From contig CAVROJ010000006.1 of assembly GCA_963722755.1 (NCBI GenBank), positions 102,255 to 166,254 on the forward strand: a stretch of DNA of 64,000 bases, read 5' to 3'. Shown here piece after piece: positions 34,913 to 55,248 of the stretch. Position 1 is the stretch's first letter; each line of letters begins with the position of its first letter. A program made the translations under genes and the position numbers. The DNA is from an uncultured Actinomycetes bacterium. GTDB lineage: Bacteria; Actinomycetota; Thermoleophilia; Gaiellales; Gaiellaceae. The notes beneath the pieces were generated by a model. It did no database searches. It had not been told where the DNA came from and saw only the letters and a program-made list of their open reading frames with translations.

Positions 34913-39223
<4,311 letters not shown>

Positions 39224-39262
39224 GCGGGGCTGACCGCCTTTTCGTGGCTGAACGGAGAAGAG

Positions 39263-39412
39263 CCCTCCCGCCGGTGTGTCGGCTGCTAGCTGGCGGGGGC
39301 GGGAGGGGGTCGCCGGCTAGCGCCGTTCGGAGGCGATGAACGCAATCGGCGAGAGCGGGGCTACGAGCGCCCCGGTCGGCCGATCGTCACGAGTCATCGC
39401 TCCGCGAGCCAT
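39263..39412 (-). promoter_or_regulatory. Putative gltB leader peptide (39412-39317) with alternative hairpins
   Basis: MARGAMTRDDRPTGALVAPLSPIAFIASERR*; interleaved helices CTAGCCGGCG/CGCCAGCTAG and CCCTCCCGCC/GGCGGGAGGG. Confidence 0.5.
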
Positions 39413-39478
39413 CGATCATCGATCGTAAAGGGTGGAGAGGCTAGCCGCAAGGACGAGCGGACTGGACGAAGGTCTCAA

Positions 39479-39507
39479 TTGACACGGGTCCAGTCCTCCG
39501 GCACTCT
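39479..39507 (+). promoter_or_regulatory. Housekeeping-sigma promoter of the ilv leader
   Basis: TTGACA-17 nt-CACTCT, 9 nt before the leader ATG. Confidence 0.65.
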
Positions 39508-39516
39508 GAGTCGGCG

Positions 39517-39615
39517 ATGACGCTCTGCCACGCCGTATCCGTACGTCCTCTCGTACCGCGCCCCGCGGTAGCGATCGGCGGCGGCATCGAGCTCATCCTG
39601 ATTCTCCCCGTCTAG
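39517..39615 (+). CDS. ilv operon leader peptide (Ile/Leu/Val-rich)
   Basis: MTLCHAVSVRPLVPRPAVAIGGGIELILILPV*; 14 of 32 residues are I/L/V; hairpin CTCCCC-GTCTA-GGGGAG covers the stop. Confidence 0.78.
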   Translation: MTLCHAVSVRPLVPRPAVAIGGGIELILILPV

Positions 39616-39745
39616 GGGAGATCGACGCTCACGCGCCCGAGACGGCGCACACGCCGACCGAGACCACACCAGAGGTGCGTCCGGAGGACGTACCGAGCGA
39701 GAGGAGCACCACCATGACCCCCGACCCCCCGACTCCCACACCGCG

Positions 39746-40680
39746 ATGACGACACGACGGACCTACGTCGTCGCGTGCCTCGCCGGCCACGGGATCGGCC
39801 CCGAGATCACCGCCGCAGCGAGCCGCGCGCTCGCACGGCTCTCACGCGAGCATGGCTTCGACGTCGAGGAGCTCCATCCGCCGTTCGACACCGAGGCGCT
39901 GACGAGATCGGGCCACATGCTTCCGGCCGCCACGCGGCGGGCGACCGTCGACCGCCGATGCAGTGCTCGTCGCAGGCGACGCGGCGCCGGCCCTCGACGG
40001 GCTCCGCGCGGAGCTCGACCTGGCGGCCCGTGTCACCCGTGTCCTCGACGAGACGGGTGAGGCCACCGCGTTCGCTCCGTTGCACGACATGGCCGCGGAC
40101 TGGACGGTCGAACGTGCCTTCGCGACCGCACGCAAGCGCTCGGGGCACCTCACGTCGGTCGGGGTCTCCGACGGGTGGACTGCTCTCGTGGAGCGGCATG
40201 CCGACCGGCATCCGGGGGTCGAGGTCGAGCACGTGTCTCTCCCCGACGCGCTCAGGCGGCTCGCCGCCGGCTCGGTGGGCGTGCTCGCCGCCGAGGGCGT
40301 GCTCGGTGACGCCGTCGCGGAGGCCCCGCGACTCGGCGGCAGGCGCCGGCTGGTGGCGTCCGCCCAGCTCTCGCCGAGCGGCCCGAGCCTGTTCGGCCCC
40401 GCGGAGGGGACGACCAGCGACCTCGGCGGGCCACGGCGTCGCCGATCCGAGCGCGATGCTGCTCGCCACCGCGCTGCTCCTCTCGGAGGGCCTCGGCCGC
40501 ACGGCCGCCGGCGAGGCGCTCGAGGAGAGCCTGACCGCGGCGCTGCGCGCGTCGCGCCGCCCGTCGGAGGTGTCGGGCCCCGGTGTCTCCGCGACGACGC
40601 GCGAGTTCGTGGATGCCGTGCTCGGCCTGCTTCGCAGCGCTCGTCGCGACACGGAGTTCGCGCTCGGAGTCGGGCCATGA
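39746..40680 (+). CDS. Degenerate isopropylmalate/isocitrate dehydrogenase-family protein (LeuB paralogue; indels; start may be 39714)
   Basis: LAGHGIGPEI N-terminus and AGHGVADPSAMLL C-terminus are retained; catalytic motifs are eroded. Confidence 0.8.
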
Positions 40681-42409
40681 GGATGACGGGCGGCGACGCG
40701 ATCCTCCGCTCCCTCGAGGCCGAGGGCGTCGAGGTGATGTTCGGGATCCCGGGCGGGGCGATCATGCCGACCTACGACGCGATGGCCCGCGGCACCACCG
40801 TGCGCCACGTCCTCGCCCGCCACGAGCAGGGCGCGGGCCACATGGCGCAGGGCTACGCCCGCGCCTCCGGCCGCGTCGGCGTGGCGATCGCCACGTCGGG
40901 ACCGGGCGCGACGAACCTCGTCACGCCGATCGCCGACGCGTGGATGGACTCGACGCCGCTCGTCTGCATCACCGGACAGGTGCGCTCGACCCTGATCGGC
41001 ACCGACGCCTTCCAGGAGTGCGACATCACCGGCATCACGATGCCGATCGTCAAGCACTCGTGGCTCGTGCAGGACGCGCGGGAGATCCCCGCCGTGCTCA
41101 AGGCGGCGTTCCACGTCGCCCGCACCGGCCGTTGCGGCCCGGTCCTCGTCGACATCCCGCGCGACGTCCAGGAGGCGGCGATCGACTTCGCCTATCCCGA
41201 CTCGGTCGACCTCCCGGGCTGGCGGCCGCCGACGAAGGTGCACCCGCTCCAGATCCGCGAGGCCGCCCGGGCGATCGCCCACGCGCGCAAGCCCGTGCTG
41301 TACGTGGGCGGGGGAACCCTGAACGGCGACGCCTGCGCCGAGCTGCTGCAGCTCGCCGAGGCGGGGACGCTGCCCGTCATCACGACGCTGATGGGCAAGA
41401 GCGCCTTCCCCGAGACCCACGAGCTCCACTTCGGCTGGCCGGGGATGCACGGGCCCAAGTGGTCGAACCTCGCGATGAACACCTGCGACGTCCTCGTCGC
41501 GATCGGCGCGCGCTTCGACGACCGCGTCACCGGCAAGCTCTCGGCCTTCGCGCCCGGCGCCACCGTCGTCCACCTCGACATCGACCCGGCGGAGATCTCC
41601 AAGCTCCGGGACGCCGACATCCCGGTCGTCGGGCCGCTGGCGCAGGCGGTCTCGGCGCTGGCCGACGAGGTCGCCAGGCAGCGCGCCGAGGGAGCGCCCG
41701 CGCCGGAGGCGTGGCTCGGCCAGATTCGCGACTGGCGCGAGGAGTTCCCGCTCCGGTACGGCGAGAGCGACGAGTGGCTCAAGCCCCAGCAGGTCGTCGA
41801 GGCGCTCCAGCGGCTGACCGCCGGCACCGACGTGATCGTCACGACCGGCGTCGGCCAGCACCAGATGTGGGCGATGCAGTACGTCGTCTCCGAGCGGCCG
41901 CGGAGCTTCATCACCTCCGGCGGCCTCGGGACGATGGGCTACGGCATCCCCGCGGCGATCGGCGCCAAGGCGGCCCGACCCGAGGCGACGGTCGTCTGCG
42001 TCGACGGCGACGGCTGCTTCCAGATGACGCGCCCAGGAGCTCGCCACAGCGGCCCTCGAGGACCTGCCCATCGTCGTCGTGCTCGTCAACAACGGCTACC
42101 TCGGGATGGTCACGCAGTGGCAGGACATGTTCTTCGACGGGCGCCGCTCGCACGTCCACCTGACCGCGCAGGTGCCCGACTACGCCCGGCTCGCAGAGGC
42201 CTACGGCGGCGTCGGGATGGTCGTCTCGAGCGAGGCGGAGCTCGAGCCGGCGCTCGAGGAGGCCCTCGGCCTCGGCAGGACGGTCGTGGTCGACTGCCGG
42301 GTCGACCCCGCCGAGCAGATCTTCCCGATGATCCCCGCGGGCGCTGCCGCGCTCGACATGCTGGAGTACTCGGACAGCCGACGACACCGTGGAGGCGAGG
42401 GCGTCGTGA
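40677..42409 (+). CDS. ilvB: Acetolactate synthase large subunit (indels; apparent in-frame join to ilvN likely an artefact)
   Basis: FGIPGGAI, RHEQGA, TSGPGATN, DAFQE, GDGCFQM, NNGYLGMV. Confidence 0.95.
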
Positions 42410-42921
42410 AGCACACACTCTCCGTCGTCGTGGAGGACCGCCCGGGCGCGCTGACGCGGATCACGACGATGTTCGCCCGGCGCGGCTTCAACATCGAGTC
42501 GCTCGCGGTCGGCCCGACCGAGCGCCCCGGCGTCTCGTGCATCACGCTGCGGGTCGACTGCACCCAGCACTCGCTCGAGCAGATCGAGAAGCAGATCCAC
42601 AAGCTCGTCAACGTCCTCCGGGTGACCGAGCTCGTCGCCGGAGAGGCCGTCGAGCGCGAGCTGCTCGTCGCCCGCGTCTCGGCGCAGCCCGAGCGGCGCG
42701 CCGAGCTCGTCACGACGGCCGAGGCGCTCGGCGGCCGGCTCCTCGACGTCGGCCCCGACGGGGTCGTGCTCGAGCTGACCGGGACGCCGGAGGAGCTCGA
42801 CGCGTTCCACGAGCTCTGCCACCCCTACGGGGTCGTCGACCTCGTCCGGACCGGCAGGATCGGCGTCCCACGCGCCTCCGGCAAGCGCCGCTCGCCGAGG
42901 CGGCTGGCCGCGATCAACTAG
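42406..42921 (+). CDS. ilvN: Acetolactate synthase small subunit
   Basis: HTLSVVVEDRPGALTRI...RRGFNIESLAVG. Confidence 0.93.
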   Translation: MKHTLSVVVEDRPGALTRITTMFARRGFNIESLAVGPTERPGVSCITLRVDCTQHSLEQIEKQIHKLVNVLRVTELVAGEAVERELLVARVSAQPERRAELVTTAEALGGRLLDVGPDGVVLELTGTPEELDAFHELCHPYGVVDLVRTGRIGVPRASGKRRSPRRLAAIN

Positions 42922-42967
42922 TTCGTCCGACCGAGCAAGCCCGCCCCCACCAGAAAGGACACAGCTC

Positions 42968-43955
<988 letters not shown>

Positions 43956-43969
<14 letters not shown>

Positions 43970-45265
43970 CGTTCCCGTAGCCCTCCTCGGCTACGGGACC
44001 GTCGGCGCGGCAGTCCACCGCCTGCTCAGCGAGCAGGGAGACGAGATCGAGCGTGCGACCGGCCACCGCCTCCGGGTGGTGCGCGCGCTCGTCCGCGACC
44101 CCGCCCGCGAACGGGGCTTCGACGCCGGCCCCGGCGTGCTGACGACCGACTTCGACGCCGTGCTCGGCGACCCGTCGATCAGGCTCGTGGCCGAGGTGAT
44201 GGGCGGCGTCGAGCCGGCGGGCGAGCACGTGCTGGCGCTGCTCCGGTCCGGCCGCTCGGTCGTGACCGCGAACAAGCAGCTCGTCGCGCGGCACGGCGCG
44301 GAGCTCTTCGCCGCCGCGTCCGCGGCGGGGGCTCAGCTGCGGTTCGAAGCGTCGGTGTGCGCCGCGATCCCGGTGATCAAGGTGCTGCGCGAGTCGCTCG
44401 TCGTGACGAACGTCCACCGCGTCGTCGGGATCGTCAACGGGACGACCAACTTCATCCTCTCGGCGATGAGCGAGGGACACTCGTACGCGGACGCGCTCGC
44501 GGAGGCGCAGCGGTTCGGGTACGCGGAGGCGGACCCGACCGACGACGTGGCCGGGCTGGACGCCGCCGCGAAGACGGCGATCCTGGCGACGGTCGCCTTC
44601 GGCTCGCGCGTCCCGCTCGAGCTGGGTCGCGGTGGACGGGATCGAGGCGGTGCGGGAGGAGCACATCGAGGCCGCGCGCGCGCTCGACATGCGCGTCAAG
44701 CTGCTCGGCCGGGCGACGCTCGCGCACGGCCGGGTGGACGTCCGCGTCGGCCCCGCCTTCGTCGACGTGCATCACCCGCTCGCCGCGGTCGACGGGCCCG
44801 TTCAACGCGGTGATGCTCCAGGGCGACGCGATCCGCGAGATCACCCTCGAGGGCCCCGGCGCGGGTGGAATCGAGACGGCGAGCGCCGTCGTGGCCGACC
44901 TCGTCTCGATCGTCGGCACGACCGGCACCGGCTTCCTCCAGGGCGACCCGGTCTGGCGGCAGGTCGAGCGGATGCCGCCCGGCGACCTCGCCTCGCCGTG
45001 GTACCTGCGCCTCGAGGTCGAGGACCGCGCGGGCGTCCTCGCCCGCCTCGCCCAGGAGCTCGCGGTCGAGGGCGTGTCCGTCGCGCGGCTCGTCCAGCAG
45101 CCCTCGAACGGTCACGCGGTGCTCCACGTCGTCACGCACGAGGCGCCCGCGGGACGGGTCGAGGCAGCCCTCGCCGCGATCCGTGCGCTGCCCGAGTCGC
45201 GCGGGGAGGCGAGCGCGCTCCCGGTCGTCTCCGAGCGCGGGGTCGAGGAGCTCGGCTGGGCGTGA
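43956..45265 (+). CDS. hom: Homoserine dehydrogenase with ACT domain (indels)
   Basis: LGYGTVG, VVTANK, NGTTNFIL, GYAEADP, GPGAGGIETAS. Confidence 0.93.
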
Positions 45266-45305
45266 GCGGCGCCCGACCCACATGAGCCTCTAGATTGCGG
45301 CGACG

Positions 45306-46278
45306 GTGACGGTGCCCCTGATCGAGCGGTTCCGCCGACGTGCTCCCCGTCACCGAGGCGACGCCGGTCGTCTCCCTCGGCGAGGGTCGACCCCGCTGCT
45401 CGCAGCGCCGCGCCTGGCGGAGGCCGCAGGCATCCGCGAGCTGTGGCTCAAGTGGGAGGCGTCGAACCCGACCGGCTCGTACAAGGACCGCGGGATGACG
45501 CTCGCCGTCTCGAAGGCGGTGGAGGAGGGAGCGGAGGCCGTGATCTGCGCGTCGACCGGCAACACGGCGGCCAGCGCCGCCGCGTACGCGGCGCGTGCGG
45601 GCCTCCCTGCGCTCGTGCTCACGCCGCAGGGCGCGGTCGCCGGGGCGAAGCTCGCGCAGACCCGGATGCTCGGGGCGACGGTGCTCGAGGTCCAGGGCGA
45701 CTTCGACTCGGCGCTGGCGGCGGCGCAGGAGCTCGGCGGCCGCGGCAGCCACGTGCTGGTCAACTCGCTGAACCCGTACCGCCGCGAGGGTCAGAAGACG
45801 GCCGTGCTCGAGGTCGTGGAGGAGCTCGGCGGCGCCGCCCGACGCGTTCGTGCTGCCCTACGGCGGAGGCGGCAACACGTCCGCCTACGCTCAGGCGCTG
45901 AGCGAGCTCGGCCTCGAAACGCCGATCGTGTCGGTCGAGGCGACGAACCGGAGGGAGACGCTCGCGACGGCGATCCGGATCGGCGACCCGGTGCATGCCG
46001 GGGCCGTCCGGGCGTCGGGCGCGCGGGTCGTCCACGTCGACGACGACGAGCTGGTCGCGGCCTGGCTGCGGCTCGCCTCGGAGGAAGGCCTGTTCTGCGA
46101 GCCCTCGTCGGCGGCGGGCCTCGCCGCGGTGCTGCGCGGCGACGTCGAGGGCGACCGCCTCGTCGTCACGATCACCGGCCACGGCCTCAAGGACCCGGCC
46201 ACCGCGGACCGCCTTGCGCCGGCGCCGGTCGAGGTGGAGCCGGACCCCGACGCGATCGCGGCCGCTGCCGGGCGATGA
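45306..46278 (+). CDS. thrC: Threonine synthase (indels)
   Basis: NPTGSYKDRG, CASTGNT, FCEPSSAA, TGHGLKDP. Confidence 0.92.
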
Positions 46279-47088
46279 TCGTCCGCGCGCCCGCCGACGT
46301 CCGCGAACCTCGGGCCCGCGTTCGACGCCGCCGCGGTCGCGCTCGACCTCTGGAACGAGCTCGAGCTGACCGACGGCGACGGCGTCGAGATCGAGGGAGA
46401 GGGTGCCGGCGAGCTCCCGGCCGACGCGACGAACCTCGCCGTCCGCGCCTACGCGCTGCTGGCCGATCCCTCCGGGAGGAGGTTCCGGTTCTCGAACCGG
46501 ATCCCGCTCGAACGAGGGCTGGGCTCGTCCGCGGCGGCGATCGCCCTCGGCCTCGCGGCCGCGCGCCCGGACGGCGACCCGGAGGAGCTGCTCGCAGCGG
46601 GGCTCGGCCTCGAGAGTCACGCGGACAACCTCGCGGCGGCCCTCTCCGGGGGCGTCACGGTCACGTGGGAGGGGCGGATCGCGCGGATCGCGGCGACGCT
46701 CCCTCTCGCCCCCGTCGCGCTCGTCCCTCGAGAGCGCACCTCGACGGAGGCCTCACGCCGCTCGCTTCCGGCCAGCGTCCCGCACGCCGACGCTGCCGCG
46801 AACGCGGGTCGCGCGGCCCTGCTCGCCGCAGGGGCCGCGGTCGGCGACGCCGTCCTCTTCGCCGCCGGGCTCGACGACCGCCTGCACGAGCCGTATCGGG
46901 GATCGCGGGCACTCGAGGCCGTCAGGGCCGATCCTCCTGCCGGCGCCCGCGGCGCGACGCTCTCCGGCTCGGGGCCGACGGTGATCGTGTGGGCGGACGA
47001 CGCACCGACCTGTGCGAGCTCCCTCGCGGAGCGCTTCCCGGAGCACGACGTGCTCGTGCTCGGCGTCACGCCGCGAGGCGCGCTGTGA
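46275..47088 (+). CDS. thrB: Homoserine kinase (indel)
   Basis: TSANLGPAFD, IPLERGLGSSAAA, HADN, LSGSGPT. Confidence 0.9.
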
Positions 47089-47796
47089 GCATCCGCCTCG
47101 TCGACTGTCGCCCGCGAGCGGACTACGAGACCGGGCACGTCCCCGGCGCGGTCCTCCTCGATCCCGAGACGACGCTCTCGACGCCGACCGCGAACCCGTC
47201 CGTCGGCGGCCGTCATCCGCTTCCCGACCCGTACGCGCTCGGTGCCGCCTTCGCCGACGCCGGGATCGGGCCCGACACGTTGGTGCTCGCCTTCGACGAG
47301 GGCACCGGCTGGGCCGCGCGCTGCTGGTGGCTCCTCCGGCACCTCGGCCACGAGGCCTGCGGCACCGTCGACATGCGCGCCTACACCGGCCCGCTCGTGA
47401 CCGAGGCGCCGCGGGTCGACCGGGCGCCGCTTCGTGCCACGCGTGCGCGACGACGACATGATCGATGCCGAGGAGATCCGCGCGCGCGCTCGACGACCCG
47501 TCGCTCGTTCTCGTCGACGCGCGCTCGCCGGAGCGCTGGCGCGGCGACACGGAGCCGCTCGACCCGGTCGCCGGGCGCATCCCCGGGGCACGGAACGCGT
47601 TCTTCGAGCTTCCCCTGCCCGGACGACGCGACGGAGCCGCCCGAGGTCGTCGCGTACTGCGGCTCGGGCGTGACGGCGTGCGTCGTCGTCGCAGCGGCTC
47701 GTCCTCGCCGGGCGCGAGGACGTCAGGCTCTACCCCGGCTCGTTCAGCGAGTGGTGCAGGAACCCGTCCAACCCGATCGAGAGAGGCGACCCGTGA
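47085..47796 (+). CDS. Two-domain rhodanese/sulfurtransferase (SseA-like; indels)
   Basis: GHVPGA, GGRHPLP, AARCWW, DAR...[24 protein letters not shown]. Confidence 0.88.
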
Positions 47797-53677: not shown

Positions 53678-54267
53678 AGCCGCTGCGAAAGGTCACCGGC
53701 CGTGTGGCGATCCTCGACCGGCCCGACGTCGACACCGACCAGATCATCCCGAAGCAGTTCCTGAAGCGGATCGAGCGGACGGGCTACGGCGAGTTCCTCT
53801 TCAAGGACTGGCGCTTCGACGAGGACGGCGACGAGCGGCCCGGGTTCGAGCTCAACCGGCCCGAGTTCCGCGACGCCTCGATCCTGCTCGCCGGGCGCAA
53901 CTTCGGCTGCGGCTCCTCGCGCGAGCACGCCGCGTGGGCGCTGCAGGACTACGGCATCGACGCGGTCGTCGCGCCCTCGTTCGGCGACATCTTCCGGACG
54001 AACGCGGGGAAGAACGGGATGCTCGCGATCGTGCTGCCGGAAGCCGAGGTCGAGCGGCTGATGGAGAGCGTCGACCTCGACACCGGCTCCGAGATGACCG
54101 TCGACCTCGAGCGCCGCGTGATCGTCGCGCCCGACGGGCGCGAGGTGCCGTTCGAGTTCGACGAGTCCACGCGCCACCGGATCCTCAACGGCCTCGACGA
54201 GATCGCGCTGACGCTGCAGCACGAGGACGAGATCGCCGCCTACGAGACGGCCCACGGCATCGCGTGA
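53674..54267 (+). CDS. leuD: 3-isopropylmalate dehydratase small subunit
   Basis: [25 protein letters not shown]. Confidence 0.96.
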
Positions 54268-55248
54268 CCCGCGTCGCGGTGCTGCCGGGCGACGGGATCG
54301 GGCCGGAGGTGGCCGCCGAGGCGATCCGCGTGCTCGACGCGCTCGGGATCGAGCACGACGGAGCACGCGTTCGGCGGCAACGCGATCCTCGCGCAGGGCA
54401 CGCCGCTGCCCGACGAGACGCTGGAGGCGTGCCGCGCGGCCGACGCCGTGCTGCTCGCCGCCGTCGGGCTGCCCGAGCTCGAGGGCCAGACCGGTGCGCC
54501 CCGAGCAGGGGCTCCTCGGCCTCCGCCGAGGAGCTCGGCGTCTACGCGAACCTCCGGCCGGCGAGCGCGGACGGGATCGACCTCGTGATCGTGCGCGAGC
54601 TCGTCGGCGGCCTCTACTTCGGCGCGAAGGGCACGCGCGACGACGGCACGTGGTTCGACACGTGCGAGTACTCGCGGCCGGAGGTCGAGCGGATCGCGCG
54701 TCGCGCGTTCGAGATCGCCCGCGAGCGCGGCGGGCGGCTGACGTCGGTCGACAAGGTGAACGTGCTCCACACGTCACGGCTCTGGCGGGACGTCGTCACG
54801 GAGCTCGGCGCGTCCGAGTATCCGGACGTGCCGCTCGACCACGCGCTCGTCGACTCGTTCGCGATGACCGTCGTCAACGCGCCGGAGACGATCGACGTCG
54901 TCGTCACCGAGAACACCTTCGGCGACATCCTCTCGGACGTCGCCGCGGCGGTCACCGGCGGGCTCGGTGTCGCGGCATCGGCCTCGCTCGGCGACGAAGG
55001 GCCGGGCCTCTTCGAGCCCGTGCACGGCTCGGCGCCGCAGATCGCCGGCCAGGGGATCGCGAACCCCGCCGGCCATGCTCCGCTCGACCGCGCTGATGCT
55101 CCGCCACGGGCTCGGGCGCCCGGACGAGGCGGAGGCGCTCGAGCGGGCGGTCGACACGGGCTTGCGAGACGCGCCGACGCCCGACCTCGGAGGCACGGCC
55201 ACGACCCGTGGCGATGGGCGACGCCGTCCTGCGGCCCTCGCGGGCTAG
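54264..55248 (+). CDS. leuB: 3-isopropylmalate dehydrogenase (indels)
   Basis: [50 protein letters not shown]. Confidence 0.94.

Follow-up and report, generated by a model that had tools for sequence, protein, structure and literature searches.

A LeuB-like gene that lies directly upstream of ilvB in a 64,000-nucleotide stretch of DNA from an uncultured Gaiellaceae bacterium (hereafter called the window, at its full length) belongs to a family of paralogues that appears to be real, specific to its lineage, and built on the fold of 3-isopropylmalate dehydrogenase (IPMDH) without the catalytic machinery of that enzyme. We consider it somewhat more probable than its negation that the gene product is such a protein, that it acts as an accessory or regulatory partner of acetohydroxyacid synthase (AHAS), and that the two frameshifts by which the gene is broken in the window are errors of the assembly. 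The coordinates of the features that we discuss are collected in Table 1.

Table 1. Features of the paralogue locus, in coordinates of the window (aa, amino acids; uORF, upstream open reading frame).
Feature	Position	Strand	Basis or remark
Leader peptide ORF, 32 codons, ending GIELILILPV and stop	39517..39615	+	Sequence; conserved upstream of paralogue
11-codon uORF, MTPDPPTPTPR and stop	39714..39749	+	Preceded by Shine-Dalgarno-like GAGAGGAG; TGA overlaps paralogue ATG (ATGA)
Putative pseudo-IPMDH (LeuB-like) paralogue	39746..40680	+	310 codons minus two inserted bases; assembled form in three frames
First window-specific single-G insertion, frameshift	39947 (approximate within local context)	+	DNA alignment
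Second window-specific single-G insertion, frameshift	40425, within GG 40425-40426	+	DNA alignment
ilvB (AHAS large subunit)	40677..42399 (end approximate)	+	Pfam TPP_enzyme_N/M/C over two frames; tblastn with G001 orthologue

Reading frame of the paralogue and quality of the assembly

The window has a GC content of ~73%, and many spurious ORFs overlap the paralogue locus. As assembled, the paralogue is read in three frames, which run from 39746 to ~39947, from ~39948 to ~40425, and from ~40426 to 40680. Its N-terminus (MTTRRTYVVACLAGHGIGPE...) begins at the ATG at 39746, its middle part (...ADAVLVAGDAAPAL...LGDAVAE...GPAEGTTSDL) reads in the frame of 39714, and its C-terminus (AGHGVADPSAMLL...RRDTEFALGVGP, followed by the stop codon) reads in the frame of a 301-aa ORF at 39775-40680. 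The periodicity of GC3 changes frame at the same points as the homology, and Pfam Iso_dh matches only the N- and C-terminal pieces of the window copy, which score 21 and 29.3 bits separately. When corrected for frame, the window product is 83-85% identical in amino-acid sequence to intact orthologues of 310 aa. The 301-aa ORF was discarded as a candidate for the gene because the homologous frame covers just its last ~85 residues, and the antisense ORFs across the locus were set aside as high-GC artefacts because both the frame-specific GC3 signal and the homology sit on the forward strand.

A preliminary description of this locus had presented the gene as a copy of LeuB with eroded active-site motifs, and each of the motifs that it quoted is found in the frame-corrected product, in which GHGIGPE lies at position 14, RVTRV at 95, SVGVS at 137, LGDAVAE at 186, and GPAEGTTS at 217. 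We further confirmed that the codon usage is host-like, as judged by GC3, that the stop codon of the paralogue (40678-40680) overlaps the ATG of ilvB at 40677 as ATGA, and that a LeuB of the intact type is encoded elsewhere in the window (~54264-55206). The paralogue had also been called the first gene of the ilv operon, and among the long cistrons of the ilv operon, which is controlled by the leader, it does come first. The start of the gene, in contrast, had been placed at 39714, which belongs to the separate 11-codon uORF; the true ATG is that at 39746. The statement that the gene is still full length (about 310 aa) holds for the family in relatives but not for the window as assembled, where it is spread over three frames.

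An alignment of the DNA with five intact orthologues contained just two gap columns, both of which are single-G insertions in the window, and when these two bases are discounted the window copy has 310 codons with zero stops and zero deletions. Further, the region 39746-47090, in a three-way alignment that included two congeners, revealed ~15 window-specific insertions, nearly all of 1 nt, in ilvB, ilvN, ilvC, hom, thrC, and thrB, which amounts to a local rate of ~2 per kb; the two insertions in the 0.93 kb of the paralogue occur at the same rate. As detected by tblastn with intact proteins of the genome G001, ilvD is broken into five frame pieces, leuC and a second thrC-like gene into four each, hom into three, and ilvB, thrC, and leuB into two each. 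On another contig (C2) of the same genome, rpoB is split in two frames, compared with a single 1202-aa frame in G012. The genome to which the window belongs comprises 3.0 Mb in 40 contigs and is 58.7% complete.

The breaks in ilvB lie near 42029 and 42376. Its TPP_enzyme_C domain is cut at profile position 61/63 of the Pfam match and then runs on into ilvN, and we note that, at 42028-42921, the C-terminus of ilvB and the whole of ilvN are read as one 297-aa open frame (the end of TPP_enzyme_C followed by ACT_AHAS_ss and ALS_ss_C). This apparent ilvB-ilvN fusion was rejected as an artefact of the insertions near 42029 and 42376.

Because similar 1-nt insertions break the neighbouring genes and rpoB, and because the genome is far from complete, both frameshifts in the paralogue are most likely assembly errors and not signs of gene decay. 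The opposite reading, in which the paralogue of this genome is a true pseudogene that was inactivated by the two frameshifts, draws on the fact that the assembled reading frame is broken twice. We rejected it as highly improbable: insertions of the identical kind hit essential neighbours and rpoB in a genome of such low completeness, the number of insertions in the paralogue fits the local rate, and the corrected frame is free of stops and deletions and evolves under constraint, with a dN/dS of 0.13-0.17 for the corrected window copy. That dN/dS is below 1, as expected of a retained gene, was also found among the relatives, where the median of the pairwise values is 0.285 (range 0.085-0.48; NG86, 78 pairs) compared with 0.19 for ilvB (first 380 codons) in the same genomes. 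The paralogue is under purifying selection, which is looser than that on AHAS. In this assembly, calls of pseudogenes are unsafe, since the region carries ~2 spurious 1-nt insertions per kb, and the gene calls need correction genome-wide first.

Fold, active-site losses, and distribution of the family

The AF2 model of the paralogue (pLDDT 87.1, pTM 0.88) has a disordered tail, and its top Foldseek matches are all IPMDHs (TM 0.74-0.85, E 1e-21 to 1e-26). We conclude from the model that the paralogue is predicted to adopt the IPMDH fold, of the two-domain IPMDH/IDH type. The intact orthologue at L003:1300-2229 scores above the Pfam Iso_dh (PF00180) gathering score (88.7 bits in two stretches versus 27) but fails the NCBIfam leuB model (TIGR00169) with 90.8 bits versus a cut-off of 353.2, which the canonical LeuB neighbour in G001 passes with 370 bits. 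A phmmer search against PDB sequences returned IPMDHs at E ~1e-28, also in two stretches; paralogue residues 3-76 and 112-282 align with residues 39-112 and 206-383 of Arabidopsis IPMDH2, and ~58 residues of the enzyme are left unmatched.

In IPMDHs and IDHs, the active site is made up of substrate-binding Arg residues, a Tyr/Lys acid-base pair, Asp residues that serve as metal ligands, and an adenosine-binding loop. In the paralogue family, the VRELTGG Arg is replaced by A, S, G, or T, and the next ~28 residues, which include the Tyr and the arm, are deleted; in IPMDH this arm forms the intersubunit sheet, and the active sites are shared between subunits. The PDB alignments display a six-residue gap over VDKANV, a Lys loop that is deleted in every family member, and the entry of a K232M mutant, which differs from the wild type at the Lys of this loop, pins the catalytic Lys there (K185 in Thermus thermophilus IPMDH and K232 in A. 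thaliana IPMDH2). In the 21 genome-derived members, none of the three metal positions has a conserved Asp, and the window copy retains, among these, just the first Asp of GDAVAE. The GGPKW...RPEQ loop carries a deletion of 11-15 residues, and the HGSAPD loop is reduced to a variable x-G-x-x-x-x. The loss of substrate- and metal-binding residues to which the preliminary description had pointed is thus found family-wide and takes in the catalytic Lys, the segment of the Arg and Tyr, and the Asp ligands of the metal.

The residues that are invariant in the family are A10, L12, G14, G16, P19, H36, H44, F47, G56, P60, R64, A72, L74, R98, W144, A204, G212, G228, P234, M237, L238, L243, G248, A254, L258, and T284. 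Of these, R98 is the equivalent of the ANLRP Arg and the sole invariant residue of the substrate site, the other substrate and metal contacts being lost. The cleft elements that are retained are the GxGxGPE loop, AGxGVxNP, and the ANLRP-equivalent Arg, and the family has a conserved C-terminal tail of its own (LP..R.[DN].E[FH]) that LeuB does not have. Given the loss of most substrate contacts and the variability of the NAD loop, it seems unlikely that the paralogue senses a ligand through the ancestral substrate site. Because some cleft elements stay conserved, however, the cleft loops may form a new pocket that serves either as a new small-molecule site or for new chemistry.

A six-frame search of 40 relatives detected close matches in 17 of the 24 congeneric genomes, with 53-83% identity in the middle third of the paralogue, the part that diverges most. 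At 13 of these 17 loci, an intact ORF of 309-313 aa terminates as ATGA or GTGA at the start of ilvB; one congeneric locus gives 333 aa, owing to the choice of an upstream start. Three of the four remaining loci, from genomes of 54-71% completeness, seem to carry frameshifts as the window does, and at the fourth (G006, 92% complete) the start codon alone is ambiguous. In relatives, intact ORFs of the paralogue span 299-329 aa. Together with 21 further loci from 12 genera, the 13 intact congeneric loci bear out the earlier suggestion of a retained paralogue with syntenic orthologues.

Databases of proteins contain the family in large numbers. Among 5.8 billion proteins, a word-indexed search yielded >120 protein clusters with at least 62% identity, nearly all of 307-313 aa, which are labelled as "3-isopropylmalate dehydrogenase" or [quoted passage not shown]. 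When 1.84 billion representatives were searched exhaustively with phmmer, 54 matches had E<=1e-30; full-length members of 300-317 aa reach down to ~40% identity, and canonical LeuBs (350-380 aa) appear from ~1e-25 and are aligned in two stretches. Four sequences (P0249, P0127, P0170, and P0179) were excluded from the family alignments as frameshift-like or of the canonical type. The contigs with matches are labelled just as Gaiella sp., Gaiellaceae, Gaiellales, Thermoleophilia, or unclassified actinobacterial metagenome-assembled genomes. Full-length matches to the family profile were found in 24 of 52 genomes of Gaiellaceae (GTDB), in 12 genera, and there were none elsewhere among the 301 genomes of the class and, outside Gaiellaceae, none in a phylum-wide sample of 401 genomes. 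The paralogue is absent from roughly half of the Gaiellaceae genomes, several congeners of 94-97% completeness among them.

In a maximum-likelihood tree, a single clade with 100/100 support unites the 21 genome-derived paralogues on a long stem (~1.3 changes per site), and the branching order inside the clade tracks the genera, which fits a single origin, vertical descent, and repeated loss. The canonical LeuB of Gaiellaceae is unusually short (324-336 aa; L047-L056 and L014), and a loop deletion of ~15 residues after the ANLRP strand is common to these LeuBs and the paralogues; LeuBs from other families of Thermoleophilia do not have it. The paralogue appears to have arisen once, and the shared deletion (not the tree, in which the stem is long) points to duplication of a leuB of the Gaiellaceae type as its probable source. 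We note that L057 (G249:C1:550700-552350), from a Gaiellaceae genome without the paralogue, encodes a divergent 350-aa Iso_dh protein with a VRENTEGEY-type motif; it clusters apart from the LeuBs of the family and may be a tartrate/isocitrate-type dehydrogenase that was taken as the best hit.

Leader peptide, uORFs, and linkage to ilvB

The leader peptide in the window reads MTLCHAVSVRPLVPRPAVAIGGGIELILILPV, followed by a TAG stop codon, and is conserved genus-wide. A hairpin spans this stop codon, and a conserved GC-rich block comes next. A leader with the ending GIELILILP[VFS] and stop is present in 13 of the 15 paralogue-bearing upstream regions examined, ~200-234 nt before the start of the paralogue, and the congeners G004, G005, G007, and G023 (95-97% complete), which are without the paralogue, carry a leader of the same type ~140-150 nt before ilvB. 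A scan of 39000-40000 against Rfam, with E values of up to 1 admitted, gave zero matches, so the leader corresponds to no catalogued riboswitch or T-box. Because the paralogue-less congeners carry the same leader directly before ilvB, the paralogue is, judging from these upstream sequences, an optional cistron placed between the attenuator region and ilvB.

The site of the uORF that precedes the paralogue is occupied in the same way in other genomes: an ATG-started uORF of 11-12 codons lies there in L002-L006 and L012, and in others a GTG stands at that position. Many relatives share the position of the uORF but not its sequence. Congeners without the paralogue have a short GTG-started uORF that overlaps the ATG of ilvB. 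These uORFs suggest a chain of translational coupling downstream of the attenuator.

At 22 further loci, the paralogue is located on the same strand as ilvB and immediately 5' of it, with a 4-nt overlap at 13 loci, a spacing of -1 to +88 nt at eight, and an ambiguous ilvB start at one. Overall, the paralogue lies directly 5' of ilvB at all loci examined, mostly with the 4-nt overlap, and ilvB is also the next gene in two distant metagenome members (42-44% identity). One of these has an ILV-rich leader peptide of its own (MTGRLTSRTPALGGLVVLLIVVIVPL). In the other (L025:1-1365), no leader is present; the 3' end of a leuA/cimA-like gene (...GKHSGRHAF...) is located upstream, with a stop codon that overlaps the start of the paralogue, and ilvB still follows. 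In most genomes in which both leuB and the paralogue were found, leuB is on the same contig at a distance of 8-23 kb (mostly ~10-18 kb).

Possible functions and comparison with known systems

The conserved IPMDH fold without the catalytic set, the leader-controlled transcript shared with AHAS, and the coupling to it argue for a pseudoenzyme with a binding role. According to this explanation, the paralogue would neither oxidise nor decarboxylate isopropylmalate and would act via binding. As the first long cistron of a leader-peptide-controlled ilvBNC operon, and being translationally coupled to ilvB, it would be an accessory or regulatory partner that is produced in step with AHAS, by a logic like that of HisZ and HisG or of the non-catalytic subunits of NAD-dependent isocitrate dehydrogenase (NAD-IDH), and the [DN]-x-E-[FH] motif of its C-terminal tail would be a candidate docking motif. 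AHAS appears to be the most likely partner because the paralogue is strictly linked to ilvB and not to leuB 8-23 kb off, although adjacency is circumstantial. The absence of the paralogue from about half of the Gaiellaceae implies that its role is dispensable and would be modulatory and not essential. More specifically, the dead LeuB copy could be a pseudoenzyme subunit of AHAS that is kept stoichiometric with IlvB by translational coupling and perhaps binds by the [DN]xE[FH] tail, a proposal that we make tentatively. If true, such a subunit would add allosteric or stability control at the first common step of Val, Leu, and Ile synthesis in Gaiellaceae, and binding to AHAS, itself an important target of herbicides and antimicrobials, would make the paralogue a regulatory subunit of a new type.

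Two other functions have to be weighed against a role as a partner of AHAS. The paralogue could be a neofunctionalised enzyme, that is, a trimmed IPMDH scaffold with a new active site or substrate that catalyses a step useful beside AHAS, as the purifying selection, the family-specific invariant H36, H44, R64, R98, and W144 (with a near-invariant C11), and the conservation of the cleft loops GxGxGPE and AGxGVxNP would suggest. We nevertheless regard this as unlikely, since each acid-base or metal residue of the superfamily has either been deleted or is not conserved, and the adenosine-binding loop varies; H36 and H44, moreover, are placed by the model at opposite ends of a predicted strand (E38-43), which would be unlike a single metal site, and frequent loss within Gaiellaceae argues against a core pathway step. 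Quite unlikely, in our estimation, is a non-catalytic subunit that forms heterodimers with the canonical LeuB, in the style of eukaryotic NAD-IDH, and modulates flux through the leucine branch. The paralogue does derive from a homodimeric enzyme, probably from the leuB of Gaiellaceae itself given the shared loop deletion of ~15 residues, and the two genes share a contig in most genomes that yielded both; however, the arm of the intersubunit sheet is deleted, and the linkage that is conserved is to ilvB and not to leuB. Further, because IPMDH active sites are shared between the subunits, both sites would be lost in such a heterodimer, which would fit poorly with co-induction under starvation for branched-chain amino acids.

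A non-catalytic partner of AHAS therefore remains the function that we prefer, and the family as a whole would represent a bacterial, lineage-restricted pseudo-IPMDH. A description of this family was not found in the literature searched, which covered IPMDH pseudoenzymes, inactive paralogues, and the branched-chain amino acid genes of Gaiella and Gaiellales. The Gaiellaceae are a widespread and largely uncultured soil lineage, and soil metagenomes contain the family in abundance, its members making up >100 clusters at 90% identity. Because databases name the family as an active dehydrogenase, the label "3-isopropylmalate dehydrogenase" inflates counts of leuB and could mislead the reconstruction of pathways in Gaiellaceae.

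Compared with LeuB/IPMDH (PF00180, TIGR00169), the paralogue has the same fold, N-terminal GxGxGPE loop, Arg of the ANLRP strand, and AGxGxANP..MLL helix region. It is ~40-55 residues shorter than typical IPMDHs, carries an extra family-specific C-terminal tail, and is without the VDKANV Lys loop, the Tyr arm, the VRELTGG Arg, and a conserved metal-binding Asp. Eukaryotes are well known to retain catalytically dead paralogues as partners of metabolic enzymes; in bacteria, where HisZ is the classic case, such partners are rare and poorly catalogued. The non-catalytic subunits of eukaryotic NAD-IDH (IDH1 of yeast, IDH3 beta and gamma of mammals) resemble the paralogue as retained, non-catalytic members of the beta-decarboxylating dehydrogenases, and the matches of the paralogue to PDB sequences of IDH3 alpha and yeast IDH2 chains are weak (E ~1e-5). 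In these subunits most ligand-binding residues are retained, and a catalytic paralogue serves as the partner, whereas in the family described here most residues of the substrate site and the dimer arm are lost, and the linkage is to ilvB instead of a catalytic paralogue. HisZ, a dead paralogue of HisRS that regulates the ATP-phosphoribosyltransferase HisG, is an analogy in logic with an unrelated fold; the binding of HisZ to HisG and its part in the sensing of histidine are experimentally established, and the paralogue is known from its sequence and model. Like HisZ, the paralogue would be a pseudoenzyme that descends from an amino-acid metabolic enzyme and is encoded together with the first committed enzyme of the pathway.
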